Shown: piece after piece, positions 20,305 through 43,481 of the stretch | Position numbering within the stretch: position 1 is the first letter of the stretch | How the letters are laid out: every line of letters begins with the position of its first letter | Virus record (IMG/VR): IMGVR_UViG_3300035227_000232 | Location: 25,414 to 89,413 of that record | Strand: one strand, 5' to 3' | DNA: 64,000 bases | Source: a virus | Taxonomy: Duplodnaviria > Caudoviricetes | Notes under the pieces: generated by a model | Told to the model about the DNA's origin: nothing | Database searches by the model: none | Seen by the model: only the letters and a program-made list of their open reading frames with translations | Translations under genes and position numbers: made by a program

Positions 20305-21095
20305 TGAGCAACCCTATGGAACTAAATAAAAATACATCAGCCGATACGAGAGACAATCGCGGGCTGATGAATAATGAACATATAGAATACAAATTTAATG
20401 AAGACGGCTCTATTGATTGGAGAGCTATGGTCTCAGAGAAATATCTTTACCCGAATAGACAATGGTTCGAGAGCAGAGAGAAGACTGTTCCTACTTCTAT
20501 AGAAGGTCTCAAAGACAATCAGCTTCTCATCATGATAGGGGGGCTGAAGGAACTCGCTCAAGTAAGAGGTTATTCGAGCGTGTCATATCAAGTTTATACA
20601 GCCGAACCTGATTTCGTAACAGTTTCTTGCCAAATAGATTGGCTCCCAAATTATGAGACTCAAGGTAAGCCAATTCAATTTCAGTCCTTATCTTGTGCGT
20701 CGGTATCAAACACTGACGGTTTCGCCAGATATTACCTACCTGAGATAGCAGAGAACCGCGCTTTTACTCGTTGCGTTCGCAATTTCTTAAAGATCAATAT
20801 TGTCGGTCAGGATGAAGTAGCAAGGACACCCCAAGAATTATCGAAGACAGCCGAAACCATCGATGTGACCAAGAAGTCTGTAGTGTCAGATCAGTTTGAG
20901 AATAGGGCGAACGTACACTACATGCTGGAAAAACTCATGAGAGATAAAGATATTTCTTTCGAACAGGTCAAAAAGAAATGTATTAGCATGAAGGTAGATG
21001 GCGCGGAAAATTTTGAAGGCTTACATAATATCCCGAATATCACCGTCTATGAATTAACGACGGCCCTTCAAAAGTATAAGCCTAAAGAGAGCTAG
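20304..21095 (+). CDS. Rad52/Sak-like single-strand annealing protein (putative)
   Basis: [25 protein letters not shown] and [19 protein letters not shown] match the Rad52-like AxTRAxxRA helix. Confidence 0.6.
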
Positions 21096-23305
21096 TAAGC
21101 GTACCACATGCCTTCATCTGATCCGTGTGGTTGGGTCCACCAAAAGCCATCTCCATCACTAACAAGGGTTAAGGGTTGGTAGGCGTACATGGTACTCATG
21201 CCATTACCGTTCGAAAGACCCCCGCTCATACTATTGTACTCGTTGTAAGCGTCATAGATAACATCACTTCCAGAAGCAGAGGCGGTGACCTTCACGCTAT
21301 TCATGCCAATGTCAAAGATAATACAAGTTATCTTCGTCCCCGCTCCTGCGCTGGATGCAGTCGGGAGAGTTAATACAAAATCCTGACTAGACCCGTTGTT
21401 GTCTATTATGTACAGGGTATCGCCTGTTACACTGGACGTAATATCACCATCTGAAGTAACTACTACCCTAGTTAAACCTCCGCCAGCACCAGTAGGGCCT
21501 GTGGGTCCAGCAGCACCACCGGAACCTGTAGGACCAGCGGGCCCAGCACCTCCAGCACTTCCAGTAGGCCCAGCGGGTCCAGCACCTCCAGCAGGGCCTG
21601 TCGGTCCAGCAGGACCACCAGCGGGACCAGCGGGACCTGTGGGTCCAGCAGGACCACCAGCGGGACCCGTAGGGCCAGCAGGACCAGCGGGGCCAGCACC
21701 TCCAGCACCACCAGCGGGGCCAGTAGGCCCAGCGGGACCAGCACCTCCAGCACCACCAGCGGGACCTGTAGGTCCAGCAGCACCAGCAGCACCAGCAGGG
21801 CCTGTCGGACCCTGATCACCACCACCCGGACCCGGATCACCTTGAGGACCAGCGGGGCCTGTCGGTCCAGCAGGACCACCAGAGGGACCAGCAGGACCAG
21901 CAGAACCAGCAGGACCTGTAGGTCCAGCAGGGCCAGCAGGGCCACCAGCGGGACCAGTAGGACCAGCAGGACCAGCAGGACCAGCACTACCTGTTGGACC
22001 AGCAGGACCACCAGAGGGACCCGTGGGGCCAGCAGGGCCAGCAGAACCACCAGAACCAGTAGGACCAGCAGGGCCAGCAGCACCTCCAGAACCAGCAGGA
22101 CCTGTCGGTCCAGCAGGACCACCAGAAGGGCCAACAGGGCCAGTAGGACCGAGAGGACCAGCGGGACCAGCAGGACCTGTAGGACCCCCAGCGGGCCCAG
22201 CAAGACCTTGAGGACCAGTAGGCCCACTAGAACCCACAGCACCTGTCGGACCTTGCGCTGCGGGAGAAAAAGACATCACTAAGATATCCGAATTGGAAAA
22301 GCTTCCTAACGAATCATTACTAGATACGTTCAGTTTCTTGTAATAACCACCGCCTTCTTCACTCGCTGAAGTGATGGTAAGACTCACCCATTTTGTAATA
22401 GGGGAATCTTGTTTAAAAATCTTTATCCTTGATCCGAGAACATCATCTAAGGACGCCAACCAAGTAGCTATGTTCCCCCCAGCATCGAAATAATTAACAT
22501 AGACTTTAGTGACTGCCATAAGATCAGAATCATTTAATCTTAATTCCCCTGTTCCGGGGTCAGCATCAGTAGTAGAACTGTCGAAAGTAAATTGATACGA
22601 GTCTCCGCCAAACCCTCCAATAGGGCCAGTAGCACCCGTGGAACCCGCAGAACCTGTAGGCCCAGCAGGACCAGCAGAACCAGTGCTGCCATCGTCGCCA
22701 TCAGGGCCAGCGTCTCCTTTTTCACCCGTAACAGAAAATGCAACGACTAGTTCATTGTCGTTTCCGAACACAGCAGTAATAGTATTACTACTATAAGTAA
22801 TTGCAGATACGCTTATTTTTCGGTACTGACTCCCCGATACATTCGCTGCATTAATCTTAAATGTTACGAAATTCTCAGGCGCAGACTTCTTAAAAATCTT
22901 GATTCTCCCTCTGTTGGTAGAGTTACTAGAGTTATCGTCGAAGGAATCCAACCAAGTAGTAATATTATTTTCTCCTTGGTCGTAAATGCTAATATACGCA
23001 GTATCAACTGATGAAAAGTAGCCGGAATGATTAAGTCTCAGATATCCTATTCCGGGGTATGAATCAGTTGTAGAAGTGGAAAATTTATATGGTTGCGCGT
23101 CTCCTGCAAAACCGCCTTGAGGACCAGTAGACCCCTGAGGGCCAGCAGCACCAGCACTTCCTGTATCCCCAGTTGACCCAGCGGGCCCGATAGGACCAAT
23201 AGGCCCAGTGGGTCCAGTAGCTAGTGGTCCGGTCGGCCCGATAAAAGTACTACCTTCTTCAGTCGTAACTGCGTCTTTGTCTAAAATTGTTTTTCTTCTA
23301 GCCAT
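21092..23305 (-). CDS. Collagen-like tail fibre protein
   Basis: Long Gly-Pro-X tracts, two copies of a ~130 aa globular domain (GGFxGD..F.STTD.xPG.G.LRLN) and a C-terminal [10 protein letters not shown]-type head domain. Confidence 0.88.
21478..22255 (-). repeat. Gly-Pro-Ala/Thr collagen repeat tract with extra-Gly interruptions
   Basis: Reiterated GGACCAGCAGG/GGGCCAGC units, visibly more GC-rich than the flanks. Confidence 0.95.
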
Positions 23306-23310: not shown

Positions 23311-26300
23311 TTAACTATCCTGTGTTAAAAAACCTTTAAAATAAAACTTACCTTCTAACGCTCCCGCCGTTGCGCCACTGCTTATAGTCACTATCATATG
23401 ATCGGTTGCCTTCGTATCATTCAACGCCAGATACCTTTCTCTTTGACCCTCTGTGATTGCATCAATAGCATTCTTATCCGTATACCCCTCTAAGTCACCA
23501 CTATAACCCATCATGAACTCGGGGCCAGTTAGAACTGGGTTAGTTGATTCGGTAATTAACAATCCCGCCTCATCCGCATAAAAATAACCTTCTGGGCTCA
23601 TATGAATAACATGTTTTCCGGTCTGAGTAAGGTCTATCTTCTTGGTCATCATGACCGTCTCGGCCATCAGGTGGTCTCTATAGAATGTGTCAGAGTTTCC
23701 GAATGCGGTAGAACCCACATATTTCGTGGGATATATATTCGCCCCCGTATTTTGCGGAAAGATATGAGTACCAGAGAAATGGGGACTAACGATAAGGTGA
23801 CCGCCGTTTACTACTTGAGCAACTTCTACGACAGAGGAACCAAAGCTAGATGGGGCCACCTCAGTTAATTGGCCAGAGGTCACGTCACTCAAGTAGAGGG
23901 GTTGTCCTGCTGTATAACCAGTTATGTAAGGAATCTGACCGTGGGAAACATATTCAAAACTCGATCCTAAAACCGATTTAACCACGCCTAAGGGAGTCGA
24001 AGTGCTAATGTTGTTGGCGCAAGCCTTAACATATCCTGAAATAGCGGGGACGCCGGGAGATACTACAGGTTGTTGTTCGTATCTGATTACATCTCCAATC
24101 GCAAACCCATGACTCAATTGCCCATGATGAATTATAGTATTAGCTGCTAAATCACCAGTGGTAAGATTAAAAGTGACTGGATTCGTTCCCAAAACCTGAG
24201 TTAGACCGCCGTAAACATTTACTGATCCACCAATATTGGAGTCGATTACAGAGACGTTACTATCAACGTTCTGAGCGTCATTGAAATTTTGAAGAACGAT
24301 TTCGTGTGCATCGATTATCTGCACCGACCCAGAAACATTTAACTGTTTGTTTATCCCTGTGAACGTCATACTGCTGACGTTGCCGATTATGTTTCCTGTC
24401 GGCTGTTCCAGATGCACAGCCCCGTCGATATAGATATTGACTGTATTTCCTGAATCAAAATTGGTCTGACCGATATTATCGTAAGTCCCCGTTATCGTAA
24501 CCGTGGAGTTATGTATCGTGTTAGTGTTTGTAAACTCATTATCCGAAATTGTGCTACTGAAAGTAGGAGAGAAGTTGCTCTGAGAATAGTAGCCAACAGC
24601 AGAGAATGTGTTATCCCTGTAATCAGCATGTACTCTTGGGGCATTGTATATGTTAACAACCCCACCTGAAATATTTGTAGTATTGCTTACCCCCGTAACA
24701 TTATGAACTGATCCTGTTATGGAAGGATTATTGTACTGGTATGATGTAGCCGAGCCAGCATACCCGTAATTGGCGGAGTTCGAGGTGTGCGTATTGTACT
24801 GATAATGCAGGGCCTCTGGGCCAATATGATTTATATCTGTAAACGCACCGCTGTGTTTTTCTATATTCCTGAACTGGTAAACATTTGTTAGGCCACCGGA
24901 TATTATAACCCTAGCATCATTAGAGGTTCCATCTGTTTGAGTATACCAAACATTAATTTCGTTCGGATGATCTGTGATGTTGGTAGTTCCGTGGTAAATA
25001 TCTATATCGTGACCAGAAACATAGGAGATCGAACCTCCTGTCACTACCATAGTACTATTATACAGCAAGACATCCTCACCAGAAAGGGTGACGTAATTAA
25101 TTCCTCCTGAAATATCGATGTTGCGACCAGTGAATGTATTTATGCCACCAGTAATATAAATGTTGCTGCTGTCGCCTTGGAGGATAACATCAGAATCGTG
25201 AATATTATTGCTGCCCTGATAGATATTTACCCCAGTAGCATAATCGAGATTCGTTAAACCGGAATTTATGGTTATTGATCCAATACCATCAGAGGCATAC
25301 ACCGGAATATTCGTCGTCCCAGTATAGATATTAGCGGTCTCTATCAGCTTCCCTGTTACATTTCCAGTTATGTACGTAGTCCCTCCAGTGATAGTCGTAA
25401 CTTGAGTCAGATAATTCTTTATTACCGATGAGGAGGAAGCATCAACCGTTTGGAGCAATGAATTGTCTATGTTCGCTACGCCCGAACGATTGTCTATGTA
25501 GTTGGTGTTTAAGCCACCTGTAATATTCAAGTTAGAGAAGTCGTTGGCTGTAACCGTGCTTTCATACACGAAGATATCACCATCTGTCTGAGTGGCATTA
25601 AGAACGCTGGTAGTGAGGTTTATTGCATTGTTCTGACCAGTGATAGAAGTCGTACCATCTGTAATATTAACCGTGAAGTCCGTGCCAGTTACCGTTACTC
25701 CCGTATTGTATTGGAGATGGAAGGTTCCGCCATAAGCATCAATATTATCAATATCTTGGTTATGGTTGATGTAGTTCGTGCCACCCGTGATTCCTACATA
25801 GTGGCCTGTTATATCATTTATTCCTCCGTCAACCTGTATAGTTCCGCCCGTTACAGTATTAACGCTATCTTTGAGGGTAAGGTTCGCGATATCTCCGATG
25901 ATTGTTGCAGTACCACCATCGATGGTATTATCTCCACCGCTAATATTTACGATCTGATCGTCTCCTCCAGATATGGCATTAACACCGCCCGTAATCCTTA
26001 AGCTAGTTATCGCATCAGAATTAACATTAACAGTACCGCTAATTACCGTATTTACATGAGAATGATCACCCGTAAGATTTACCGTGTTGTTGGTACTCTT
26101 GTTGAGGGTGTTATATACATTTAAGACACCTGACCCTGTGACAGTGTTTCCTGTAGTTACGAATGATCCGGTCGTTACCGAATTATCCGTGTTGCGTAGC
26201 GTCCCGATGTAAGCTGCGTAAAGTGTTAGATTATCACCTTCAAGGTCGTTAATGCCTCCAGTAATAATAACATTCTCAATGATTCCAGTAGCATATTGAG

Positions 26301-29300
26301 TACCACTAAATATTTGATTGATGGTGACGCCAGAATAAAGGTTTTCGACATTTCCAGTGATGTTAATGAAGCCACCTTCTTCAATGTAATGTCCAGAAAC
26401 GGTAGTCGCTCCTGTAAAGATGTTTTGTGCTCTCGTATATATTTCGTTATGACCGCCTGTCACGAATATGGCATTCGTGGTTTTGGCCAAATCGAGATTG
26501 GAGTCGTATGCGTATACGGTCGATCCAGAGATGATTGGATTCGACCCTGTTATGTTCGCTGTTCCAGTAATGCTAATTGTGTCAGCATCGTAGATATGAA
26601 TCCCATCAGACCCAGTGATATGAACAATTCCATCACCAGTTATTGAAACCTGATAAACGTTTCCAGTGTTAGTGAAAGTGTTTGTACTGCCATAATAGGA
26701 ACTGGTACTTTGAGAAATGCTATTTGTGAAATTCGCATTCAGGAACAAATCTGATCCAGACTCAAGGACGATATCCACGGTTACTGGTGAATTGTCCTTG
26801 GTAAAGACTTGGCTACTAGAATTGTTTGATGCATACCCCCCAGCGGGAGATGCCGTCGATGAGTAATATGTCGATAAATCTATAGTCGAATCTCCTACGT
26901 GACTTCCAATATCCAGCCTAATAGCACCAACTTCTTGATCGGCACTTGCCGAAGTAGTGGCCACCGCGCCACCGCCATAGTAACTCGAAGTAGCATAACT
27001 CGATTGAGTATTCTCGTAGTTCTGGAAAGCGTTTACTGTTAGATCACCCGATTGATAGTCGATATCAAAATCACCAGTGCTCGTTCCGGTTAGGTAAACA
27101 TTTCCAATAATTCCGGTGTCGATATCCAGAATCCCCGATCCAAGGAAGATATTAGTTATCTCGCTGTTGTTTACATAGAAGTTATCTATGTTCGACTCAG
27201 AATAAATATTATTACCACTTCCAGTAATGATTGTGTCCGTCAAATCGAGATAAGAAGAAAGCTGGATAGTCCCGATAGTCCCGCTAATCAAATCGATATC
27301 GAAATCACCTATATTTCCTGTGTGATTTAGCGTTCCTATCGAATGATCAGTGCCCGCTTGACTTATACTTTCGATAGTTCCTGTGGACTGCCAATTGGTA
27401 ATGTCTCCGTACACATATGTGCCAGTTGGCATATACAGGTAATTGTCCCCTCCGTGAATATCTATCTGCGAATTAGTACCCGTAATCGTAACTTCGCCCG
27501 AGTTGATGGTTAAATTATGTCCATCGCCCGAATGATAAATAAATATATCCCCTTCCTCTACGGATATGGAACCTGATCCAGTGACAGTGTTCCCTGTAAT
27601 CGTGGGCTTATTATTTATCGTTATGTCCCCACCGTAGCTATGAATAGTATTATTTAAACCGCTACTCAGGGTTGCTACGAATCCAGCACCACCAGAAATG
27701 TAATTAATTCCTCCTGTTATATAAGCCGAACCGGAGATGTGACTTACTCCACCGCTTATGTAGTTGGTGCTATTGGTAAGCGTCAATGATGCATCAGAGC
27801 CAGAAGCAATATTTACCTCTATGTCGTTTATACTTTCTTGGACTGTGATTTCACCACCTGTGATATTAGTGTGGCCGGAGATTATTGTTACCGTGCTCGT
27901 GTTTATGTAGTTTGTATTTCCGCCTGTGTAGTGGTTTATCTCCACTGAACTTTCATCTACATCAACGTTACTAGTAAGAGTGTTGCTGTTTAATGTTACG
28001 TGACCGCCTGTTACGCTAAGGTTATTTACGGTTCCCGTTATCCCCACCGAGCCTGATGCATATGGTCCCGTGAAATATCCGGTCCCCGAACCTGTAATAG
28101 TAACATTAAGAGGACCATTGGTAATCCCTATGACCAGATTTCTAACCGTGTTTAACTCTACGTCTCCAGTAACTAAACCGCTTTCGTGGACCGATGGACC
28201 ATATGCAGTTAAACTCGAAAACGCATTAGTACCCCCCAGACTCACGGTGTTGAACGTATTATGAGCCTGTGAAATTGTGCCAGCATTTATATTCTGAGAA
28301 CCCGTTAAATAAACGTTAGAATAATTGGCGTTGAAAGTATCTATAAGGTGATGGTGGGTGGCTGCATTATCATGCGACGCCAAATCAACATCGATGTTGG
28401 TTGTTCCACCAGCTTGAGAGGTAGCGGTGATGTTGTTCGTCCCTGCGTTGCTTGATCCAGCCTCAAACGTATTCCCTGTGATGTATAACTTAATATCCGT
28501 TAGCTCATTTCCTGTGGCGTAGATATTTGTGTCTTGTCCAGACATCAAATTCACATAACCGGAATGAAGAATATTGAACGTGTTCACGCCTCCGGTGACG
28601 GAATTCACGTTGTCGGTAGTGATCGTATTAACGCCACCCGTTATGGCCCTAACATCCCCACTGACGACCATAGTATTAACACCGCCGTCTAAACCGACGG
28701 TCTGGGAAAACACATTGTTAACGCCACCGGAAAGGGTGGCTGTGTTGGTGAATATGTTAGCTACTGAATCATAGATACTATTTTCACACCCTGAATTAAT
28801 GGCGACGGTCGATCCAGTTATGCCGATGGTGAAAGTCGGACTTGCTCCAGATGCTATGCCACTTCCTATATGTACTAAGCCACCAGAAATGTGCGCTATT
28901 CCAGTATCGACATTAACTACGCTCCCATCTTGTGGGAAGAAGTAGTTATCATTTCCATATATCCCAAGCTCTCCGTACAGGTCTGCCGTTCCCGTAAGGT
29001 AAATGCTTTCATTACCTGAGAGAGAATTAGTACCTTCATAAATGTTGACTTCACTATCTGAAATAGAATTTTTGCCACCAGAGACAGTAACTTCTCCAGT
29101 TATATTTACTATTGATGTCGTCCCAGAAACATTAATAAGAGTATTGCCAGCACCAGTAATGAAATAACCCGTATAGATATACTCTCCGGGATTAGTATAC
29201 GGACCATTAAAGACGGTTACGTCACTACCAGTAACGTCTACGATACCGCTATTAAGAATCTGAACATCACTATCTTCTACATTTACTATGCCACCTGATA

Positions 29301-32300
29301 GATTCGTGAAGTAAGCATTTCCGTCATAAATGTTCACGTTCTCTCCAGTGAAGTACTGGTTACCTCCGGTAATGGAAATATCATTTAGAGCGTTATAAAT
29401 ATGAACGTCACTATCGTAAATTATGTTAGTCGATAAATTTCTGGCCCCAGTAACGTATACGTCATCAGCACCAGAGAAAGTGTTATAGCCACCACTTATT
29501 CTTACGTCGAATATGTTTGTGGCGGTGACGTAGTTGATCTCTTGGCTATAATCGTTTACCGTGATTCCCGAGCCCGTGAAATGGAATGTATTCCCAGAGC
29601 CAGTGATGCTGTAGTACGAGAAGTCACCAGTCTTATCTATCTTTAATACGTTATTGTAAGTATTAGTTTGTGTTATCTCAGTTATCGTCTGATCAAAATA
29701 CGGATGATAACTATAGTCGTTTAAGGTAATTCCTGTTCCAGTGACGCTTACTGAATGGCCACTCCCCGTAACAGTCATGAACGTTCCAGATTTTTCTATC
29801 TGGTAAACGTTTGTGATTTGCTGTCTGTTGTCCTCAACAGTTATTCCAGTACTTCCGGTTATTGTGAAGGTCTGGTTAGTGCCAGTGATGGTTACGAACG
29901 ATCCCGATCTATCTATCTGGTAAACGTTTGTGGTATTTCTTGTATAATCATTTACGGTAATCCCGCTCCCAGTGATCGTTATTGAATTTCCGTCTCCCGT
30001 GATGCTGTAGAACTCTCCAGTTTTATCTACCTCATAAACATTTGTGGTCTTGCTCGAGTAGTCATTTACAGTAATCCCACTACCAGTAAACGTCAGGACA
30101 TTCGAATCTCCCGTGATGCTGTAGAACTCTCCTGATTTTTCTATCTCGTATACATCTGTATATGAATAAGAGGAGGAGTAATCATTGATAGTCGTTTGCC
30201 CTGAGCCAGTGACAGTAACGTTATCCCCAGTAACCGTTATGAATATTCCTGTTTTATCTACATCGTAAGTAACATTTGAGGAATAATCATATATGGTCGT
30301 CTGCCCAGAGCCAGTTATTGTATTGTTGTCTCCTGATACCGTAATAAATACGCCAGATTTTTCTACGAACCCACCATTATAAACATACGCATCCCCATCA
30401 AGGACTCTTATCGTCGCATTGTTATCACCCGAGATTGTTATATACGTTCCAGTGTTATCGAAGAACGTGTTGTAATTCTCGGTAGTCGAATAATCGAATG
30501 TCCCAGATTTTTCTACAACAGTAGTCGTTGTAGTTTTTGTGGAATAATCTTTTATGGTCGTCTGCCCAGAGCCAGTGATAATGTTGTTGTCACCGCTGAC
30601 GGTGATGTAGACTCCTGTCTCGTCGATTAGGTTAACCGTCGTATATCTGTTGGAGTAGTCTTTTATGGTCGTCTGCCCAGAACCAGTGACGATATTCTCA
30701 TTTCCATTTACGGTAATATAAGTTCCAGTTTCCTCAATTAGGTTAACCGTCGTATATCTGTTCGAATAATCGTTTATTGTCGTTTGGCCAGAGCCAGTGA
30801 CGATGTTCTCGTTTCCGTTTACGTCTATGAAAATTCCACTCTTATCTATCGAACTCCGTGTTACGTATCTATTGGAATAATCATTTATGGTCGTTTGTCC
30901 CGATCCTGTGACGATGTTATCATTCCCGCTAACATCTATGAACGTCCCGCTTTTACCGACGGTGGTGAACGTTCTGTTCGTGACGGTAAAATTCCTAACC
31001 TCTACGTCACCAGCACCAGTAATATTATTAGTAGTGTTATTCCCTGTTATGGTAACGAATGTTCCGCTCCTTGCGATTGCAAAAATATCGTTCCGGTTGA
31101 TGTACTGGCTATAGTCATTTATCTCCGCAAGCTCATTCCCCGTAACATTAATAGTATTTCCGCTCCCGGTTATACTTACGTAATGGAAGTCCCCGCTCTT
31201 ATCTACGAAAGCGGTAATATGATTCGTGGTATTGAAAGTATCTCTATCATCGAGGATGATATGATTGTTCCCGTTAAAGAAACGATTCAAATACCCACTA
31301 ATATAAGAACACTCACTATCGTAAAAGAAATTATAAAGGCCACTTATCTCTGCATTTCCTGTGAAATTATAGAAGTAGTTAAAGCCTTGTAAGATATCAC
31401 AATCATCAGTGGTGATTTCGTTATGGCCCGCTTGAGTCGTTACTCCCGTGGAATAAACGTAATTTACTCCCAGCTTAATTTCGACAGGACCACTGTATAT
31501 ATCATTTATACATCCAGAGATGTTAATCGTCGTGTCATCATAAGCGTTGATGAATGCGCCTGAGCCAGTGTGGTGCAGATTCACAGTAGATGTGTTATAA
31601 GAAACGACATCAACTGTTTGGCCTGTCTCTATGTAAATATGCCCAATCGAGTTATTAAGCTGAGCGGTTAAATTAGTGTCTACCCCTGTGAAAAAGGCAG
31701 TACCGCTATATACGCTAGCTGAATATACGTTATCAGCGACGAAGCTGGAATCATACGCGGTGATAGTAGAATTCCTATCTATGTCTATCTGAGTACCGCT
31801 ATAGATAGGAACAATTCCGTGATAAATACTTGGGTAGTCCCCGACGTTTACCTGACCGGAATAGTTTAGGATAGTATTATTGGTCGCAGTTACATCTACT
31901 CCCATCCCCGACACGAAAGTCATGGTGACATTTTCGCCGTTTACAATCCCCGAAACTGTTCCTGTAAAATTAGTAGTACCATTAGTTATCGTGGCCATCT
32001 CAACATCAGTCATGTTGACTGTAGAACCACTTATGATTGGGCTTTCTACGCCTAGAAAAATAAAGTCATCTCCAGAAAGATTTACGAAGTTAAGACCTCC
32101 TGTAATGTAAGGACTACTCGGCGTATTTACTACCGTGTGCCCGCCTGACAAACCAACGATACTAATATTTACACCTGTAACACTATTGACAATGCCCGTG
32201 ATGGTTACTAGATCATTATCATAAACTAGAATATCTCCGGTGCTAAGCCCAGAGATGTACACATTATGTGCATTTGTAACTGTTATGTTTCCTGACGCTA

Positions 32301-35300
32301 CGAGATTTGCGCTCGCGCCGGAATTAAAGAAAATATCATCTCCTGTTATAAGATTTTCACCGCCGTGGATGAAAACCGTACTCCCCGAAATCCTGTTATC
32401 GCCAGAGCCATAAATTGATACATTCCCGCCTATGACATCAAGGTTTCCGCCGTCATGAGTTATGGTCGCTGTTCCTTCTCCCGAAAGATTTATAAGTCCT
32501 ACATCTCCTTCTATAGTGTTGTTTCCATAATAGATCGTTCCCGTAGGAAGAGTATTAAACCCTCCGTATACTACGTTACTGGAAGGAGAATTTATTATCG
32601 GGTTTGAAGGATTATTTAAAGTGGTCGTTCCTTGATTTACCGTTACATCAGTTGCAGACCCTATGGTGGTCGTGCCACCTGAAATTGCGAATCCCCCTGT
32701 TCCTATATCTACAGTAGAATCAAAGAAGTACGATGTGTCGCTCGTGACATTAACAGTGCTTGATCCAGTATAGCCACTGAACGATATGTTCGGAGCCATG
32801 CCAGTAACGTTAGCTTCTGTCGCTCCATAGACATATGTATTAGCGTTTCCTCCGCTCTCTGGATTTTGGTTTATCGTGACAGTAGATAAACCTGTAACAA
32901 AATTCGTTCCATGATTTATTGTTAATTCACCAGAAAGATCGACAAGATTAAGACCACCGCTTATTGTAATCTCTCCACTAAAATCATTTTGCAGAACATT
33001 AGTGCCCCCACTAATTATGACAAGATTTCCGGTTACATTAGTTAGTCCCCCCGCTATGATAGCCTGACCGAAACCAGTTACTAAAGCTGTGCCATTAGAA
33101 TTCGTGTTATCTACGGTAACAATTGAACCATCACTAAATTGTAAGATGTGCGGAACATTGCCAGAGGCGTTAGAGTTATAAACGGAAACATAATTCCCAT
33201 CTCCAGAAAGAGTGATCAATTCGCTACCCGAAATATAGTTATTCGTTGTAGCTCCTGATACACCAAAGATATTTACTAAATTGCCGGAACCAGTATTAGA
33301 AAAATTTGAAAAGTCTAGCCAGTTATTTCCGTGATAAATATCTACGACATTGCCAGTGATAAGATTTTGTTGGGTGTAAACTACGAACCCACTTGAAGGA
33401 TGCGAGAAATCTCCTCTGACTACATAGATTCCAGTATTATCCGTCGGCGTAAAGTGTAGGCTCTGATACGCAATACCGATAGACGGATCATACATATTAA
33501 CGCTTGCGCCAGACCCTTCGAACGTAGTGATATCGCTATTCGTAATATTTACGATTCCACCGAACACATTTTCCGCTGATGTATTGGCATAGAAGTTAAC
33601 GACTCCAGAGTTATGGACTTGCGTGTCAACACCGCTAGTTATATTAAGTTCCCCTTGAATTGGGTTTGTTATGTCCACCGTTCCTGTGTAGACATTCATC
33701 GCCCCGTATACGGACGGAGAATTGACTCCATTAAAGATATCTAAATAATCAGTGGTAATCGTATTTACGCTATCATAGATATAATTTCTACTACCCGAGA
33801 GAGAGACGACGCTGTCGTTGATGGCCGTGTTTAAAACCCTCGAAAAATTTCCGTATGCACCGATAGTAACACCACTACTGTTCTGAATAGTTTGATTCCC
33901 ACTCGTTATATTTATGTTCTCTGAACCAGTGATAGTTATTGTGTTTACTTGCTCATTTATGTCTATCCCCGTGGAACTATGGATATGGATAATGTCGCCC
34001 GTGACATGAGCCAAAGAAGGGTTATTAACAGTTAGATTAACCTCATAAGCATCTCTAGCATCGACGTAAGAAATCCCTCCTGTAGCATTTAACTCAAGAT
34101 CGTATTCAGTACTGATAGTGTTGGTCGAATCATAAGCGTAGACAACAGAAGCATCGCTAATCGATACATTTTGATCAGCACCATTAATATATGCAGTATT
34201 AAGCTCGTTAATGTAAGAGTTCGATAGCGTCAGATTAATCGTTTGATCCCCGGTTATGTACGTGGAATAAGTTCCATAACCATTCTCATCACCAATGTTT
34301 AAAGTCGTGCATTCCGACCCGCTATTGAAAGTTACTATTCCCGTATGAGAAGTAATGTTTGCCGTACTTAGGACTGCGTCGCCTTGAAAAATTGCATAAG
34401 GATGAATGTCGATATTCGCCGTGGTCGGGTTCATCGTCCCCATGAAAATACCGCTGCCTGTGATATAGGCAGTCATAGTACCATTCGATGTGATGGTATT
34501 GTCTCCGTACCAGACGTTGATATCTGACTTACCCAAATAACTGTCATCGACAGTCATTGTATTAACGCCACCCGTTACTATTAGATATCCCCCGGTCTTT
34601 GCATGTAGGGCATTAACGCCTCCCGTAATATTGATTGGCACAGAGGAGCCGGAAGCGTTGTTCAGTACATTAATATTAGTAGTTAAGAGATCGCGGTTTA
34701 CAAACTGTACACCAGAATAAATTGTGATGTAATTCTCCTGATATCCGTAGTTCCCATTAGAGAATGATGGGGAATAATGTCCGCCCTCCTCGATATTGTT
34801 TTCTATAGTAGTATAAACTGGTGCTGGTTCATCGCCGGATACGTAATCCGTTATAAGGATGCTAGAGTGTGTGACATCAAGGGTTCCCGTTCCAAAAGAA
34901 ACGATAAAAGAAGAGTCGCTACCGGAAACACTGACTACTGAATCTGATATAACAGCATTACTTTGCTCTATATAAACTGGGTCTACAGTATTAACATGCG
35001 TAGTACCACTCCATATGCTAAACGCAGCACCCGTGGCGTTTATGTTGCCTCCTGTTATATAATTGCTGCCTCCTGAGATATGCACGAGCCCAGAATTCGC
35101 GATAGTCTGTTGTCCTCCGATGACCTGAAAAACTCCAGCTTCGTCTAAATCAATAGTGTTGATACCACCAGAAATATTTATATTACCAGTTATATTACCG
35201 GAGACATTTAGGATACCGCCATAATTTGAAATATAGTTATCGCCACTAATGTCTACACTTCCGCCAGAATTCCAGATGTTTAAAACCCCGCTGTTCCTGT

Positions 35301-36717
35301 CAATGAAAGCACGGTTTAAATTATAGACCGTATTTTGTGATCCGGGTTCAATGACAAACAAATAACCAGTGATATCAGCAATAATATTGGAACCATGATA
35401 GTTCCTCATTAAGACGGTCGAACCTATCCCTACATTATTTACTGAAAGCTGCTGATTCGAATCATCAATATTTAGGGTGATTACATCGTTAGTTCCACCG
35501 TCTACGGTTATGTCTCCAGCCGGATTGTTTACGTTGGTTGAATACGTAAGCTGCTCGATTACACCACCTGTTATCTGGACTCCAGCAGATGAAACGTCGA
35601 TGTTCTTGATTGTATCTCCGGTGACTGAAGCGTTGCCTCCATCTTCCACAAACACATTTATACCACTCTCAAAATCTAAAACGTTTTTACCGTTTACATA
35701 AAGCCCCCCGCTAATATTAACGTCCTTATGAAGAGTGAGAGTGCTTGTCTTAAGGAAATTTTTTCTAATCTCGAAATCAGGAAGAACACCCTCGTATAAA
35801 TGTACTGATTCTATGTTCCCGGTGAAGTGGTTATGGGTATGTGTCTCTCCCGTGTTATACCCTACTAGAAATGGCTGATCGTTATAAGATATTGCAGCCC
35901 CAGCTTGAGAAGAATCTCCTGTTATATATTTTCCATTAGCGTAAATGCTATGGGTCGTTCCGTCCCACTTCGCCGTAACGTAATGCCAGCCACTCCAATG
36001 TATATCATCTACCGCTACTTCTGAGGCTGAATCGTCAAACCTAATCCTATGGACAAGTCTTCCAGAATTATAATAGTGAAAGCCATAGCTCGTATCATTT
36101 CCTTTTGTTAGCTTACCAGCTACGAAGTTTCCTTCTCTGTGCCCTTCTTGAGTAGGATTAAAATACATCCCGAAAGTAAATACCTCAGGACGGATGGAGC
36201 TACTGTCTTCGATTCTTCCGAAATCGCCAGTTTCATCGACAATGAATTGATTGACATGAAACTCAGCCATCTGACCCGTACTCACGAATGATAGATCATT
36301 TTCGTAATACGATTGGTCATACCACTGTGCCCCAGTACCATGATAGCTGTCTAATTTGGAGGCATCTAAATCTAAACTAAGCCCTGACTTAACAATGGAG
36401 TTGGGGTCATTTGCTATCGTAGACCTAAGAGGAATCCCATTTATATAATAATCTCCAGCATTAAGGAACAAGCTTCCACTTTGTACGGATAAGTCACCAC
36501 CATAGATCGTTACATTTTTATCGAAGAAAGCGTCACTGTCATGAACGTGAAGAGCACCGAAAAGCTCGGAGTCTCCCTCTACTAATAAGCCCGTCCCTTT
36601 GACATGAAAAAGACCAGCGTTTACCTGTCCCAACTCATTAGAGAGGTAAACGTTGACATCCTGAGGTATCGGCACAAGCTCAGGAATGAAACCCGTAATT
36701 ATCGTACAATTCGCCAT
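23311..36717 (-). CDS. Giant 4468 aa fibre/adhesin: half IPT domain, LamG-like domain, long ITG/SG-rich beta-solenoid, C-terminal fibre domains
   Basis: Uninterrupted ORF. LamG-like segment ([39 protein letters not shown]) at about 36400-35750. The body is G/T/N/I/S/V-rich. Confidence 0.9.
29520..31210 (-). repeat. About 14 tandem 35-40 aa repeats (core period 111 nt) inside the giant ORF
   Basis: Consensus [22 protein letters not shown]...I[DE]K[ST]GxF. TATGGTCGTCTGCCCAGA occurs at 30553 and 30664. Confidence 0.92.
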
Positions 36718-36729
36718 TAAATCATCATC

Positions 36730-39021
36730 CTAGCATACCCTATAAGCAGTAAAACCTGTAATCTCAAAATCCCCGAATTTTATTGTTTTCACAAAATCTA
36801 AATTATCACCCGAAATCGTAAATGATCTAAACGGCTGACCAGCGACAGGGAACACTCCATCTACCCTCATGGGTCTCACGTTCGTAAAAATACCCGTAGA
36901 AACAGCGATTTCCCCTACAATATTCTCAGCTAAGAGATGACCAGAGCCACTAAAAGAATACGGAGGATTGAAGCTAAGTGAGTAGTCATCTGAAATAATT
37001 AAGTTATCTGCAAATCCAGATACTGACGGGAATGAATCAAATCCACTAAACATAACTCCCGTAATTTGAGAAAGACTGTATCCCTCCACGGAAACTGAAG
37101 TGTTTTGATATCCAAACTTCGGGGAAAATGAATTTATCGTCGGTAATGGTGGCAATAGTTGATATTTTTCATCTTTAAATAATATCCCATCTAGATGCCC
37201 TATTTCATTAAGGAAATGCATTCTCCCTGAAACGAGTGCTGATACCTGTGCCTCTGGGGTGGATGTTTCGAAAATGGGGTCCTCAGCTATCAAAGCAAAA
37301 TATCCACTTTCGAAATATTCAGTATCTGCGTCGTATGGTAGAACCCCAGAAAAATAAGAGTATCCGGGGTACGTATACGTAGGTGGATCACCGCTATCGC
37401 CATTAAGAAATATATCAGTTCTACCAAGACTTACCCCACCAGCTTTATTGTTTCCGGTATAACCCAGAACGAGTGATCTAATAGCATTAATCCCAGAGAC
37501 ACAAAACTGTGTAGCAGCGAATCTAATTGTATTTGGCGAAGATGGATTCTTTAAAGTCACACCTTCTATAGTCGGGATTACCGTGAAATTTCCTATATCT
37601 GGATAGTAAAAGGCGTTTCCCGCTATTCCAGAAACGTACACTTGCGAAGAAAAAGTTTCTTTCGGTACTTGAAACGTCGCTCCAGTTTCATTCGTGTATA
37701 TAAGATTGTCCCCTTTAAGAGTATTAGCATCCGTTACACCATCAGCATTTCTGAAGAAAAATTCTGCTCCTGATAGATTAAGTCCAGACACAGTGATTAC
37801 ATCAGAATATCTCCCAGATAATGGAGTCATGCTTTGGACAGCAGCATCAAAAATTACATTAAATTCATTAGCAGAAGAAGTGGAGCCTCCCTCATTCGTC
37901 ACTCTTATCTCTCCATCTATAGCGTCATTAGGAACGTTGACTCCGATTGCCCTATTGTTTAGTAACTTAAAACTAGTCGAATTTATTCTGGACTCTGTTT
38001 CATTCTCTCCCGAAAAATCCACATTAAGAGCAGAGGGCATCCTTGCACCGCTAAGGATTATGTAATCTCCTCTTCTCCCAAGGGGGGGATTGATATCATC
38101 TATAGAGACAGGAGACATCAATAACTTAAAATCCTCGCTTGAGGTAGCTCCCCCACCTGTCGCGACGATATGAATCCTATTATCTCCGACTAACGAATCA
38201 GGTACTTTAAACTGTATTTCCCCAGAGCTTATTACAGTGTCTGCGTCATTCTCTATCCCTGTTATGCCATTCACCACAAACCCAGAAGCGTGAATATATC
38301 CCCCGAACCCAATGCTTGAAACGTTTATGTAGTTGGCTCCCGAAACCGTGATAGTCTCCCCAGTGAGGCCGGACGCTGGAGAGAATCCTTTTATGTAAGG
38401 AGGAGGTATTACTTTAAACGGATGGCCTACCCCGGTGTGCCACTGATCATAGCGATTACTTAATACAATCTCGTAATCTATAGTTCCTGATACTGCTGAT
38501 TCATATTTATTATCATATCCAGAAAGAGAAACAGTTTCTGGAACAGAAAATCTAAGTTGATCACCATTGGTTATATCCCAACTATCTGAGTCTATCGTTA
38601 GCGGTATTCCCGAAACACTTATCCCCGGAGTATTAAAATATGCTTTAGTTCCATCAAAAAACCCTGTCTGCGGGAATAGGTTTCTTCCAGTAACAAGAAC
38701 TTCGTTCCCCCCGATCCCACTACTCGGAATAACTCCTGAAATAGTTGCTGGGCCTAATTGCCTGAGTCCTTGGCCATAATCGTATTGCCCTGTTATAATT
38801 CCAGCAGGAGTAGTAACATAGGCATCATATTCTCCTTCTGGCAATCCAGCAGGAACTTCGAATAAAAGGAAACTTGCTCTAGTTATCGGGTCTTCAGATA
38901 CTGATATAATATCTACGCCTGTCGTGAGCGAACCACAGTAAATGACAGAGCTCAAGGAACACTTAAAGGTAAGGTCTGTAGCCCCCCCTAATCTAAACCC
39001 TTGAATGTATCCTCTAGGCAT
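36730..39021 (-). CDS. IPT/TIG (Ig-like) repeat structural protein
   Basis: About 8 repeats of I..xxP.xG..G..(V/I)T(V/I)xGxNL...F...VP..G.(I/V).V. Confidence 0.88.
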   Translation of the reverse strand: MPRGYIQGFRLGGATDLTFKCSLSSVIYCGSLTTGVDIISVSEDPITRASFLLFEVPAGLPEGEYDAYVTTPAGIITGQYDYGQGLRQLGPATISGVIPSSGIGGNEVLVTGRNLFPQTGFFDGTKAYFNTPGISVSGIPLTIDSDSWDITNGDQLRFSVPETVSLSGYDNKYESAVSGTIDYEIVLSNRYDQWHTGVGHPFKVIPPPYIKGFSPASGLTGETITVSGANYINVSSIGFGGYIHASGFVVNGITGIENDADTVISSGEIQFKVPDSLVGDNRIHIVATGGGATSSEDFKLLMSPVSIDDINPPLGRRGDYIILSGARMPSALNVDFSGENETESRINSTSFKLLNNRAIGVNVPNDAIDGEIRVTNEGGSTSSANEFNVIFDAAVQSMTPLSGRYSDVITVSGLNLSGAEFFFRNADGVTDANTLKGDNLIYTNETGATFQVPKETFSSQVYVSGIAGNAFYYPDIGNFTVIPTIEGVTLKNPSSPNTIRFAATQFCVSGINAIRSLVLGYTGNNKAGGVSLGRTDIFLNGDSGDPPTYTYPGYSYFSGVLPYDADTEYFESGYFALIAEDPIFETSTPEAQVSALVSGRMHFLNEIGHLDGILFKDEKYQLLPPLPTINSFSPKFGYQNTSVSVEGYSLSQITGVMFSGFDSFPSVSGFADNLIISDDYSLSFNPPYSFSGSGHLLAENIVGEIAVSTGIFTNVRPMRVDGVFPVAGQPFRSFTISGDNLDFVKTIKFGDFEITGFTAYRVC

Positions 39022-39024
39022 TTT

Positions 39025-41721
39025 TTAAAGTGTCCCCGGCGTAATACTGGTAATATATCCAAGGGGCGGTATTACATATAGGTATTTCCCAGAAGGGTAT
39101 AATGAACCATCCTGCCCATTCATGTATACGTTCCCCGGAACTGCATCGGGCGGAATTATCCCTGTCAACGTAAATTGATTTATTCCTGTAAACGCTGCTC
39201 TCGCGTTATTGGTGAAAGTCGTTTGAAACGCACCAGAAAAGTCAATCGCAGAATCTGCATATACAAGACTATCTAACCTAGTGGGCCAAAAGTTTTTCCC
39301 TTGTATTATTATATCAGTCCCCGCACTGCCCGTCGTAATAGAGTAGGTCCTTATATCTCCATAGATAGCCTTGATAGCCTCTTCCTCTTGATAAGAACCT
39401 TTAATACCATTAGGAAATTTCGAAGAAAAGACATCTGTCGAATAGTAGAGAGGGTATAACAAAGATTGGACATTACTGTTATGCCCGATTCCTAATACGT
39501 GACCTATCTCATGCGCTGCAATTAACTTAACGCTATAAGAATTAGGATCACTTGAAGCAGGATCACCGTCTGGTCGCCAATCATCTTGAGAGTCAAATAC
39601 TACATCACCGCCAATGTTTCCCACGCTCCCAAGGCTCCCTCCCGGTTGGTATGCGTAAGCTAATGTTTTATGCTGCCCATCTACAGGAGACATACTGAAT
39701 CTCCAATCACCGATACCCGACGGAGAAACTGTCGGTATATCATAGTCTACACCATAATAATCTGTAGCTAGACCAGTGGTCCTTTCTGTCCCGAGGTCTA
39801 TAAAATTCATCGAGAGTCCGGGGAACCAATCTTCAAAGGCGTCTTTCCACTCTCCTATCGCTGACACGATCTCTCCAGAGAACTCTACAGCATTGAGAGA
39901 ACCATCAAGATAGTCCTCCATATCAACGTTCTCAACGATGACATTATCCGAGCCCCTCCTTAAACTCCCCCCCGACATGAAGCTGTACCTAATAGTTACG
40001 GTCTCTGTCCCGCCAGCGATGACATTCTTTACGGCGGTTTTAAGAGTTGGCCAACCATCGTAAGATTCCCAGCTCCTGAGATGGTAAACGTCTTGTTGGA
40101 ATCCTGTTATAGCTACGTCTTGTTCCAAAGGATCAGAACTTATAGATTGATAGGACCTTCTATCTGGAGATTGCGACTCAATCCAATGCCCCGGAGGCTG
40201 ATAGAGATACAGCGGGATATGGTCTGTATAGCCCATTAATTTTATTTTCCCTTGGGCATCGTTATTCGGAACGATAGCTTGTACTTCGTAACCATCAACA
40301 ATTGAAAATGTCGAATTCAAGCCATTAAATTGAACTCCTGTTAGTCCCAAGAAACTCTGCCCTTTTACGCTAATGGTAGTATCGACATCCCCGGCGGAAG
40401 GACTAAAGCCACTGATCTTAGGTAACGGCAACCACGTCTCAGAAAGGACGGTCTGATCTTTATCAGACGAAACGACTTTTATTCTACCCTTGCAAGACAG
40501 GTCTGGAACTTTAACTTTGACTTTGGTAGGCGACTCTTCTCCATTATTCAGCAAGTCTACTGTCCCAACGATACTGAAACTATTAGAAGGGATGTCGTTA
40601 GGAGGGAAAAGAACCTCTGTAATTCTATCAAAATTCTGCCCGTGAATCGTAATTTCATCACCGGGATAACCAGTAAATGGAACAGCGTGGGTCGCAACCA
40701 TATCTGCGAATAAAAGGGTGTAAGTGTTTGGGCTTCTACTCTCTCCACCAAAGTTTGTAATGCTTATATAAGAGTCAACCTTAGAAGCCCCATATGGAAC
40801 TTTAACCTGAACTCTTTCATCCGATATGACCGTAACATCATTAGTACAAGCTTTCCCGAAGCAAGCTTTCACTGCCGTCGAAAGATTATATCCATTTACC
40901 GTTACCGTGTCATGTTCCCTGAAGGCCAAGGGAGAGAAAGATGTAATTTCTGGTTCCGAAACAACGTTGTCTTGCCTTACGGACAAGCTCGTCATTAATG
41001 GTTCATTCGCTGCTGCCCTTATATTCTTAGCAGTGACCTTTCCCCTTACCCCATAACTCTCAACAGTCACAGAACTATCTATAGGCTTAAGGTTTATTTG
41101 GATAGCTGAATTATTCCCTGTGACGGAAAGGTCTCCGCTCAGATTGTCTATGTCTATAGTTAAGCCTACCTGTTTCTTCCCAAATTTTACGTCGCTGGGG
41201 ACAGTTTCTCCTGCCTTTAGAGCGGGCTCGACTTCAGCACTATAGTTATATCCGAACCTTAAAATATTAGAAATGTCCCCTATCCCAGAGCCACCGTCTA
41301 AGACAGCGTCAGAGAAGTTTAAAAAATCTGTTTTTTCCGCTTGTTCGTATGTTGGATTAAATTCGCCTTTCAACTCATCGAAAAATACAATCTGTGCTTG
41401 AACCGTAACGGGACTTGCAGGGACAGCATTGAAAGAATAACTGGATAGATAACCACTCTTAAAATTTAGCCCACCAAAATCTCCTGTTATCGAATGTATT
41501 TCATCCTCAAAATATTCCTTCAGAGGGTCTACGCCTGTAAGTATGTACGCTATGTCAAATCTACCGCCGATTGCATTAGTCGATAAATAGTCGAATGAGT
41601 GTCTTTGCTCTGAGTAATATTGAGGCTCTGGACGAGCAGAAAACTCTACAGTAGCGTTCGTAACATAGATAGGCTGCTCATTTATCTGAATCTTGCAGTT
41701 CTTGTAAGTATAGTAAGCCAT
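39025..41721 (-). CDS. Tail-tube-fold protein fused to IPT/TIG repeats and an M10/matrixin-like zinc protease domain
   Basis: The N-terminal ~250 aa are paralogous to the two upstream genes. IPT repeats follow, then GGDVVFDSQDDW and HEIGHVLGIGH (39481-39513). Confidence 0.85.
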   Translation of the reverse strand: MAYYTYKNCKIQINEQPIYVTNATVEFSARPEPQYYSEQRHSFDYLSTNAIGGRFDIAYILTGVDPLKEYFEDEIHSITGDFGGLNFKSGYLSSYSFNAVPASPVTVQAQIVFFDELKGEFNPTYEQAEKTDFLNFSDAVLDGGSGIGDISNILRFGYNYSAEVEPALKAGETVPSDVKFGKKQVGLTIDIDNLSGDLSVTGNNSAIQINLKPIDSSVTVESYGVRGKVTAKNIRAAANEPLMTSLSVRQDNVVSEPEITSFSPLAFREHDTVTVNGYNLSTAVKACFGKACTNDVTVISDERVQVKVPYGASKVDSYISITNFGGESRSPNTYTLLFADMVATHAVPFTGYPGDEITIHGQNFDRITEVLFPPNDIPSNSFSIVGTVDLLNNGEESPTKVKVKVPDLSCKGRIKVVSSDKDQTVLSETWLPLPKISGFSPSAGDVDTTISVKGQSFLGLTGVQFNGLNSTFSIVDGYEVQAIVPNNDAQGKIKLMGYTDHIPLYLYQPPGHWIESQSPDRRSYQSISSDPLEQDVAITGFQQDVYHLRSWESYDGWPTLKTAVKNVIAGGTETVTIRYSFMSGGSLRRGSDNVIVENVDMEDYLDGSLNAVEFSGEIVSAIGEWKDAFEDWFPGLSMNFIDLGTERTTGLATDYYGVDYDIPTVSPSGIGDWRFSMSPVDGQHKTLAYAYQPGGSLGSVGNIGGDVVFDSQDDWRPDGDPASSDPNSYSVKLIAAHEIGHVLGIGHNSNVQSLLYPLYYSTDVFSSKFPNGIKGSYQEEEAIKAIYGDIRTYSITTGSAGTDIIIQGKNFWPTRLDSLVYADSAIDFSGAFQTTFTNNARAAFTGINQFTLTGIIPPDAVPGNVYMNGQDGSLYPSGKYLYVIPPLGYITSITPGTL

Positions 41722-42560
41722 CAGTAATTCCTATTCACGCCTATCTTCGTTCTTACTATATCACCAACTCTTGCTTCAAGTGATGTATTTACGACAAGAC
41801 CGCCCGACATAGTTAGAGACAAGTGAGAGTTCTCCAAAGAGTCGCAAAGTAAATCTACTTCAAAGGCTTCTATGACCATGTCAGAGCCAAACTCGGTGCT
41901 GAACGCATCTTCTGCTCTTTCTCCAGAAAAAGTGATATGCCTATGCACGCTACTCGTTAGATTTAACATCTCTGAAGCATTCATTAACTGCACTTGTTTG
42001 GGATATTTTCCTCCAATCGCATATATCGGAACCCATTGAGCCCTGAATTGATAAGAGAAATCGTAAGTGGGAAATTCTCCGTGGGCTCCGCTACTCGTTA
42101 TGAAGGTATTCCAACCATTCACTATCGAATTCGACTGATTATAGTTGACCGCATCGCCCCCGACTTTCTTAGAAGACAAACTTCCCTTTAGTGGCTCATA
42201 TGTAACGAATTGGACGCTTGCTTGAGCAGCACTGTTTGGTTTTAGTGCCAGAGTGTAATCTTGTACGTAGAAAGTCCCAGATACTCCCGCGACTTCGACA
42301 GTAAATCCTTTCGCTACGTGGTCGTCGCTTCTGAATTGTTTGATGGTCTCAATGATTTCCAAATTCGGCTCGTTATCAGCTTCGACCATATAGCTAATCT
42401 GAACCATAGAACGGATGGAATCTTTAACTGGCTGGCCAGCTTCTCCCCTTTTCTCAAGAACGTAAGCTGGGTCAAGATAATTTACAGACTGCACTGAAGC
42501 AGAATCTGCCAGAATGCCAGAGCCATTTATTACTACATCACAATTATCGAAATAGACCAT
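41721..42560 (-). CDS. Tail-tube/hub-fold structural protein (paralog 2)
   Basis: Two-fold internal repeat. FSYQFRAQWVPIYAIGGKYPKQV matches the tube-like S..R.P.Y.LG..P pattern. Confidence 0.65.
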   Translation of the reverse strand: MVYFDNCDVVINGSGILADSASVQSVNYLDPAYVLEKRGEAGQPVKDSIRSMVQISYMVEADNEPNLEIIETIKQFRSDDHVAKGFTVEVAGVSGTFYVQDYTLALKPNSAAQASVQFVTYEPLKGSLSSKKVGGDAVNYNQSNSIVNGWNTFITSSGAHGEFPTYDFSYQFRAQWVPIYAIGGKYPKQVQLMNASEMLNLTSSVHRHITFSGERAEDAFSTEFGSDMVIEAFEVDLLCDSLENSHLSLTMSGGLVVNTSLEARVGDIVRTKIGVNRNY

Positions 42561-42561
42561 A

Positions 42562-42595
42562 CCTTTTCCCTTATTCCACCCACTTGAATTTACAC
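42562..42595 (-). promoter_or_regulatory. GTGTAAATT...GGAATAAGG upstream element
   Basis: The minus strand reads GTGTAAATTcaagtgggtGGAATAAGGgaaaaggtATG, the same two boxes as upstream of 43562. Confidence 0.55.
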
Positions 42596-42599
42596 TATT

Positions 42600-43481
42600 T
42601 TATGGTCTGAGAAGATATGTTTTATAGGTTAAACTTACATTTGCGTTCGCTCCTGCCCCGACATTGTAGGATTGATCTGTGAGCCTGAGGTTTGGTAGGT
42701 GATACTGATTCACGATTTCATTAGTATGATAGTCTTTGACCGTTATTGTTAAGTCTCCAGAATTTGGCGTGCATGGAGAATCGAAATTATTGTTAATTGC
42801 GAAATTATCTCTCGTTATGTCCATATTAAAGTTACATTGAACCTCGACTGGATACGTAAGCTCTACAGATGCAGGGTATCTCTTGCCTAAGACATAGAGT
42901 GGGTTTCTATTGCTAGTTACGCTAATTGAGTAAGAGTTTACTCTGTTTGTGGTGAGTTCATCCTTAAAGTCTATCTCTATTGATCCGGGGGCTATCACCC
43001 TTAATGGATAGGTAGTACCAGCGTTATTTTGGATGTCCGTAAGGTGAGAAGGGGAATCATCCAGCATTTCTCCTGCTGTTGTGGGGATTTTACCAATTTT
43101 GCCGAATACTACCATATTCGCGTTTATTTGAGGGATATCCCCAACTGAACAAGTGTGGCTATACTGAGCCAGATATCCTGAAGTAAAACTAAAGTTATCT
43201 GCGATATTTGAGTTATTTTCTAGAAGATAGCCATTAAATCCGACGTCCCCGGTCTTATCTATAAAGTGGTCATGACTGAGAAAGTATGAAGTCAATTGCA
43301 CCTGACCGACTACAGGTCCATCTGAAGTGTAATTTAACTCACTCATCCCCAAGTGAACTATCGGCTTCACAGGAACATTGAAATTTGACACAACGCTCTG
43401 TACCCCTGATACTTCTGAGTCGTTCAGGAAGAAGTGTTGTTTCCTCCTGCTTAATCGAGTAGATGTGTTAAAGTCGATCAT
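42600..43481 (-). CDS. Tail-tube/hub-fold structural protein (paralog 1)
   Basis: Two halves: VSGVQS..PVKPIVHLG..SGYLAQYS and RVNSYSIS..RNPLYVLGKRYP..L.DQSY. Confidence 0.65.
   Translation of the reverse strand: MIDFNTSTRLSRRKQHFFLNDSEVSGVQSVVSNFNVPVKPIVHLGMSELNYTSDGPVVGQVQLTSYFLSHDHFIDKTGDVGFNGYLLENNSNIADNFSFTSGYLAQYSHTCSVGDIPQINANMVVFGKIGKIPTTAGEMLDDSPSHLTDIQNNAGTTYPLRVIAPGSIEIDFKDELTTNRVNSYSISVTSNRNPLYVLGKRYPASVELTYPVEVQCNFNMDITRDNFAINNNFDSPCTPNSGDLTITVKDYHTNEIVNQYHLPNLRLTDQSYNVGAGANANVSLTYKTYLLRP

Follow-up and report, generated by a model that had tools for sequence, protein, structure and literature searches.

Three adjacent tail genes of an uncultivated marine phage, ORF1, ORF2 and ORF3, are likely to be separate genes derived from a single ancestral gene that was cut twice, each time within an Ig-like domain of the IPT type. 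The two parts of each cut domain would rejoin non-covalently, and the reading frame common to the three genes would be a relic of this history. Chaining by a shared Ig fold is supported at junction 2, between ORF2 and ORF3, by a conserved fission, unsplit relatives, purifying selection and a two-chain structural model, while at junction 1, between ORF1 and ORF2, it is plausible only. An earlier, sequence-only reading of the same DNA had offered two explanations for the arrangement, namely subunits that complete each other's Ig fold, or readthrough of both stops by an ochre-type suppressor to give a protein of ~6136 aa. The first is the one we favour, with the difference between junctions just stated. 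The second did not hold up.

Layout of the appendage operon

The window, that is the whole stretch of 64,000 nucleotides analysed here, is the last 64 kb of one 89,413-bp contig (41.6% G+C), which lacks a terminal repeat and carries a single tRNA, Arg(TCT). A giant minus-strand ORF (52783-63999, listed as 3738 aa) reaches to 1 base from the end of the window and of the contig, and its true start may lie past the contig end. Since this ORF runs to the contig end, the genome is incomplete; head genes, most tail genes and any further tRNAs are absent from the contig. The features of the appendage operon are collected in Table 1.

Table 1. Genes, domains and junctions of the appendage operon, in the order of transcription (window coordinates)
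Feature	Coordinates	Strand	Description
Two genes upstream of ORF1	41721..43481	-	293 aa and 279 aa; first in the operon
ORF1	39025..41721	-	898 aa; tube-like N-domain, ~residues 1-255
ORF1 IPT repeats			Residues 257-499; Pfam TIG (E 4e-14) and internal IPT profile
ORF1 matrixin-type metalloprotease domain	39433-39699		Residues ~675-763; Pfam Peptidase_M10 (E 1.4e-16)
ORF1 end			Last IPT-like domain, then C-terminal tail
ORF1 last 14 residues	39028..39069	-	Putative strand A for the domain continued in ORF2
Junction 1	39022..39027	-	TAA (39027-39025) and one-codon spacer, then ATG of ORF2
ORF2	36730..39021	-	763 aa
ORF2 domain order			Ig-like N-domain without its own strand A, 5 complete IPT repeats, non-IPT insert, half IPT
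ORF2 residues 719-763	36733..36867	-	Strands A to C', first half of the split IPT domain
Junction 2	36718..36732	-	TAG (36732-36730) and four-codon spacer, then ATG of ORF3
ORF3	23311..36717	-	4468 aa; no Pfam match; would form the giant distal body of the appendage
ORF3 residues 1-42	36592..36717	-	Strands E to G, second half of the split IPT domain
Collagen-like tail fibre protein	21092..23305	-	737 aa; closes the operon; matches PHROG tail fibre families (best E 1.9e-49)

The N-domain of ORF1 gave language-model leads, to be taken as leads only, to Phage_tube_2 and the T5-type Baseplate_Tube_p140 (scores 0.90-0.93), and a PDB sequence search with the same domain returned nothing meaningful. 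The 279-aa product is a weak paralog of this domain (blastp E 2e-7 over 198 residues), and the 293-aa gene shows a marginal resemblance to it. The pair of small genes also precedes ORF1 in the related loci L001, L002 and L008, and in L001 the operon is adjoined by divergent lambda-type tail tip genes (Phage_min_tail, Phage_tail_L, a JAB protein and a GpJ-like protein). The TIG family (Pfam PF01833, cut-off 20.9) is matched by ORF1 residues 257-335 with 52.7 bits and by ORF2 residues 208-298 with 30.3 bits, and PHROGs gave no match for ORF1 or ORF2. The N-terminal 400 residues of ORF3 are 42% identical to P0011, a protein of 4435 aa.

From these features, ORF1 would be a tube- or baseplate-ring protein bearing a metalloprotease and an arm of IPT beads that points outward, ORF2 would lengthen the arm, and the giant ORF3 would form the distal body. 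The metalloprotease sits within the IPT arm, and Peptidase_M10 is also recorded in the ORF1 of L001, L002 and L006. The end of ORF3 lies 5 nt from the collagen-like fibre gene, which is in a different frame (23306-23313).

Both stops fall within Ig-like domains

An internal IPT profile of 77 positions was made from 35 repeats of ORF1 and ORF2, taken from all lineages. The C-terminus of ORF2 matches only positions 3 to 35-40 of this profile in the window, L001, L002 and L006 (28-34 bits; positions 3-35 and 33 bits in the window itself), and ORF2 therefore ends everywhere with half a domain. The N-terminus of ORF3 contributes ~0 bits to the profile score, and Pfam found no TIG match in the fused junction translations or in each half taken separately.

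The other half can be placed by means of relatives that are not split. An exhaustive search, for which the query was ORF2 extended by the first 430 residues of ORF3, gave 7 proteins in which the single best alignment crosses junction 2 (P0065, P0088, P0072, P0074, P0079, P0108 and P0146). The junction 2 domain is continuous in all of them, with the N-terminus of ORF3 aligning to its second half, and in a MAFFT alignment all 5 split lineages break in one loop, past the C/C' region and before strand E. Ten proteins (1118-1551 aa) have the N-domain of ORF1 at their start (E 1e-46 to 1e-64) and continue uninterrupted. Six of these ten are continuous at junction 1, where the MAFFT alignment puts the break of the window in the A-B loop. 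As the unsplit relatives span both breaks, the stops cut real domains, one in the A-B loop and the other before strand E, and collinear single-chain homologues across each break identify the division as gene fission. The sequence-only reading had placed both stops inside Ig-like domains and had seen the two halves of one IPT domain on either side of junction 2, and on both points it was right. It had also observed that the domain at junction 1 keeps the spacing of other repeats if the stop is counted as a residue. By our own alignment count, the window with the stop so counted has the same length as the unsplit P0072, which fits an origin of this stop by point mutation. When the 159 retrieved proteins were scanned for further ends in half an IPT domain, the only ones found were apparent contig-end fragments.

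The unsplit relatives from marine metagenomes (P0072, P0157, P0068, P0079, P0074, P0108 and others) have the same tube-like N-domain and the same order of IPT repeats, with the same two domains at the positions of junction 1 and junction 2. They differ from the window in forming one polypeptide, without the giant ORF3 body, that ends soon after the junction 2 domain. The phage context of P0072 is similar, in that glycosyltransferase genes and separate PHP and DNA polymerase III alpha genes adjoin it, but P0072 has no Peptidase_M10 match on record, unlike ORF1 of the window.

Related loci with the same division

The ORF2 of the window is 77% identical overall to that of L001, and ORF2 homologues of similar length are found in L002 to L005 (31% identity), in L006 and L014/L015 (39%) and in L007 (29%). 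Both gene boundaries are kept in five split lineages, which form one clade (support 100/98) with terminal branches of up to 2 substitutions per site. The start methionine of ORF2 and of ORF3, and the residues that follow it, are conserved in every lineage. For ORF2 of L001 the gene caller chose an internal TTG (754 aa; L001:9971-10001); the conserved ATG two codons past the stop is the likelier start.

Both junctions are in frame in L007, where the ATG follows the stop immediately. L002 has a one-base overlap of ORF1 with ORF2, and a 13-nt gap with a change of frame between ORF2 and ORF3. In L006 no two of the three genes share a frame, and the spacers measure 10 and 19 nt; in the L006-like L014/L015, junction 2 is out of frame. 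Across the split lineages the spacer varies from -1 to 19 nt. As to the conservation of the stops in homologs, which the sequence-only reading had put forward as a check, the gene boundaries are conserved and the shared frame varies between lineages.

A maximum-likelihood tree of the ORF2-equivalent region has the form (L007,((window,L001),(L006,L002))), and its midpoint root falls between the split and the unsplit groups. The in-frame state is found on the basal L007 branch and on the window/L001 branch, and is lost only in L006 and L002. This is the pattern expected from a nonsense mutation with a new start nearby, followed by indels in the spacer that were tolerated. On this comparison of sequences, the in-frame layout is most simply seen as an ancestral relic of fission by nonsense mutation, and it would have no function.

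L008, from Tara Oceans, is split at junction 1, continuous at junction 2, and has a new boundary further down. Its three genes (L008:8124-25310) are of 625 aa, 1769 aa and more than 3777 aa, in this order; the second runs on through junction 2 and carries a Laminin_G_3 domain. Both boundaries are overlapping stop-start sites. Since the layout differs from that of the other split loci, the appendage has been partitioned more than once.

A tblastn search of ORF1 and ORF2 against cultured-phage records gave no match, and the split clade is thus known from metagenomes only. In viral contigs, ORF2 as a query retrieved no related loci, and an alignment of the ORF3 N-terminus retrieved no more than a single L006-like locus in each of two collections.

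Probable reassembly of the split domain at junction 2

The two halves at junction 2 are under strong purifying selection. Between the window and L001, the 60 codons before the stop hold 21 synonymous and 0 nonsynonymous differences, and the 60 codons after the ATG hold 19 and 0, which makes the halves the most constrained part measured in this comparison. At larger distances both halves exceed the average identity of their own protein, with sliding-window percentiles of 78 and 88; the second of these values belongs to the N-terminal window of ORF3, which is 52% identical to that of L006.

A two-chain prediction was made with the last 154 residues of ORF2 and the first 75 residues of ORF3, with a four-row alignment for each. 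The model reached an ipSAE of 0.66 in 3 of 3 runs, while the best of 3 controls reached 0.00. Of 80 solved complexes, 58 reached the mark used for ipSAE, as did 2 of 110 mismatched pairs; the mark is a rough guide here because the alignments are our own. The pLDDT of the partner was at least 83, and at least 93% of the contacts were common between runs. The interface comprises positions 117-154 of the ORF2 chain (A1) and residues 2-42 of ORF3. The contacts with the lowest error (ORF2 positions 123-127 with ORF3 7-11, and ORF2 138-141 with ORF3 22-26) would, by our own reading, join strand B to E and strand C to F, as in a canonical Ig domain.

Single-chain IPT domains are common among solved structures, and the passing score of the predicted pair may reflect likeness to these many domains; for this reason the model shows fit to the Ig fold rather than binding. 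What the prediction shows is that the two pieces of junction 2 fit one IPT fold. The profile, the alignment of 7 relatives and the positions of strands E, F and G in the model all place the two pieces together in one IPT domain. Of the models proposed with the sequence-only reading, for each junction fused and as a pair, the pair at junction 2 passed, and AF2 on the fused junction 2 was uninformative (pLDDT 42).

The halves could also be leftovers of the fission that do not reassemble, in separate genes whose proteins join in some other way or act independently. The absence of a significant IPT profile match at the N-terminus of ORF3 is in keeping with this, as are the weak evidence at junction 1 (see below) and the first cut of L008, which seemingly leaves the first domain of ORF2 complete. 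Leftovers would, however, be expected to decay. Instead, the two flanks of junction 2, of 60 codons each, hold 40 synonymous differences against 0 nonsynonymous, in a pair of loci where ORF2 is 77% identical, and in lineages at 31-39% identity the halves still exceed the average conservation of their proteins. The two-chain model also rebuilds a canonical Ig sheet that the controls do not. We regard idle leftovers as unlikely, and favour reassembly of the halves into one domain.

The candidate strand at junction 1

The case at junction 1 is weaker. In the AF2 model of the fused junction, confidence was confined to the N-domain of ORF2 (block-mean pLDDT 60-88 from residue 3), so that, of the two sides, the ORF2 domain folds and the ORF1 tail is left unplaced. 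Foldseek gave weak Ig-like matches for this model (E ~0.04), and joining the ORF1 tail to ORF2 brought no gain in profile score. The tail does align to positions 6-20 of the profile of the unsplit domain, which is the strand A segment. For the window, the score of this alignment was marginal, being reached by 39 of 500 shuffles, and for the tails of L006 and L008 it was reached by none of 500. The tail of L002 has diverged and did not match the strand A segment of this profile. It is plausible from these alignments that the ORF1 tail supplies the missing strand A of the ORF2 N-domain, the support coming from collinearity and a marginal motif match.

Termination and readthrough

ORF1, ORF2 and ORF3 are all in one frame, with starts at 41721, 39021 and 36717 and with an ATG after 1 intervening codon (TAA) or 4 (TAG), exactly as the sequence-only reading had reported. 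Three adjacent genes would share a frame by chance in about 1 of 9 cases, and the contig has 3 further pairs of neighbours in the same frame, so the shared frame alone means little. One same-frame pair, at 46637-46643, consists of a 239-aa gene ending in TAG and a 1482-aa GpJ-like protein; the equivalents in L008 overlap, and are hence out of frame, and the site looks like an ordinary gene boundary.

Readthrough, or suppression of the ochre type, would yield one polypeptide of ~6,136 residues, with the stops tuning the ratio of short to long products. It would suit the in-frame junctions of the window, L001 and L007 and the agreement of the read-through length at junction 1 with the unsplit P0072, and phages reportedly add Ig-like domains to their proteins by recoding. 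It is very unlikely on the remaining evidence. The genes of L002 and L006 overlap or change frame at both junctions, and those of L014/L015 change frame at junction 2. The spacer is variable in length, and at junction 2 its 4 codons hold 0 synonymous and 2 nonsynonymous differences between the window and L001, against 0 nonsynonymous in the 120 flanking codons (Fisher p = 0.0008), which argues that this spacer is not read as part of the constrained protein. Translation through the stop would, by alignment count, lengthen the junction 2 loop by 6-8 residues relative to the unsplit relatives. A suppressor tRNA was sought on the incomplete 89,413-bp contig and none was found, Arg(TCT) being its sole tRNA, and other genes of the contig terminate normally at TAA and TAG. 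Reassignment of TAG or TAA in the genetic code was considered and rejected, as genes across the contig end normally under table 11. Stop readthrough as the working mechanism is thus not supported by the sequence comparisons; minor readthrough may occur in the in-frame lineages.

The weakest explanations can be dealt with briefly. Recent nonsense mutations in a pseudogene, or errors of assembly, might be suspected from in-frame stops with minimal spacers, and the sequence-only reading had named assembly error or a rare nonsense variant as what would overturn it. Independent assemblies were compared to verify the stops at the consensus level. The four assemblies L010-L013, from 4 samples, match the window at every nucleotide of ORF2 and of the junction DNA, and the same TAA and TAG are present in L001, which comes from a fifth sample. 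Identical junctions in five assemblies from different samples exclude an assembly error or a rare variant at the consensus level; with start codons and N-termini conserved, and the split common to a clade with such long branches, this explanation is improbable in the extreme. Joining of the pieces by frameshifting, ribosomal bypass or protein trans-splicing has nothing but the adjacency of the genes in its favour and can be given almost no credence, as the shift needed differs by lineage (0, +1 or -1), inspection by eye of the L002 and L006 junctions showed no slippery heptamer or matched take-off and landing codons, and half domains of 42-45 residues of IPT sequence have no room for an intein.

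A model for the appendage

The preferred reading, of three separate genes whose products share Ig domains, can be set out as follows. An ancestral single gene for a tube-anchored IPT-repeat appendage would have been cut once in one IPT domain, in the loop that follows strand A, and once in another, ahead of strand E. Each ORF would be translated from its own conserved ATG, and the close stop-start spacing probably couples translation, so that adjoining ends would be synthesised together. The 42-residue N-terminus of ORF3 would then pack on the 45-residue C-terminal half of ORF2 to form one Ig sandwich, and the ORF1 tail would probably donate the missing first strand to the N-domain of ORF2. 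In this way ORF1, ORF2 and ORF3 could be held end to end without a peptide bond, in an appendage of ~6,100 residues. The in-frame layout would be what is left of fission by nonsense mutation.

If the halves do reassemble, the split Ig domain is a natural, compact and non-covalent protein connector, and an appendage of ~6,100 residues can be mounted without being translated as one chain. It would also offer a recombination-friendly joint for exchanging receptor-binding parts, and annotators would have reason to keep such in-frame gene pairs as they are, neither merged nor discarded. A neat in-frame stop within a domain need not imply recoding. A broader proposal, which we hold tentatively and consider somewhat less probable than its opposite, is that split Ig-fold joints are a general plug-and-socket device for building very long heteromeric fibres from exchangeable pieces. 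This operon would show two grades of the device, a strand and a half domain, together with its birth mark of an in-frame stop and a new ATG. If so, the conservation at junction 2 marks a standard connector for swapping distal fibre bodies.

Comparison with known systems

In a full-text literature search of incomplete coverage, the term "split Ig-like domain" was used only for single-chain proteins, and nothing was found on fibre genes that share an Ig domain. The layout of one segment per gene is familiar from other phages. In T4 (gp34-gp35-gp36-gp37), and in T2 and T6 (gp37 plus gp38), consecutive genes encode successive segments of one fibre. The window has the same layout as these multi-gene fibres, which are its nearest biological parallel, without any relation in sequence, and we know of no description of an Ig domain shared between two chains at the joints of the T4, T2 or T6 fibres. 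The Ig-like domains that are added to phage structural proteins by programmed frameshifting likewise lie at the ends of tail genes; here, in contrast, the frame relation varies, and each downstream gene has its own conserved start.

The joints themselves are best compared with bacterial pili. In chaperone-usher pili (Fim, Pap) and in type V pili, a strand from the neighbouring subunit completes an incomplete Ig-like fold, which gives a non-covalent chain. There is no homology between these pili and the appendage. In pili an N-terminal extension fills the groove of the G strand, whereas here a C-terminal tail would donate the first strand at junction 1, and half a domain would be contributed at junction 2. 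Chaperone-usher pili also need a dedicated periplasmic chaperone and an usher, with a pilin fold that lacks the G strand, and no candidate for either protein was seen among the annotated neighbouring genes of the window. The likeness would be one of mechanism, donor-strand complementation, and by this analogy junction 1, with its one donated strand, would be the closer counterpart.
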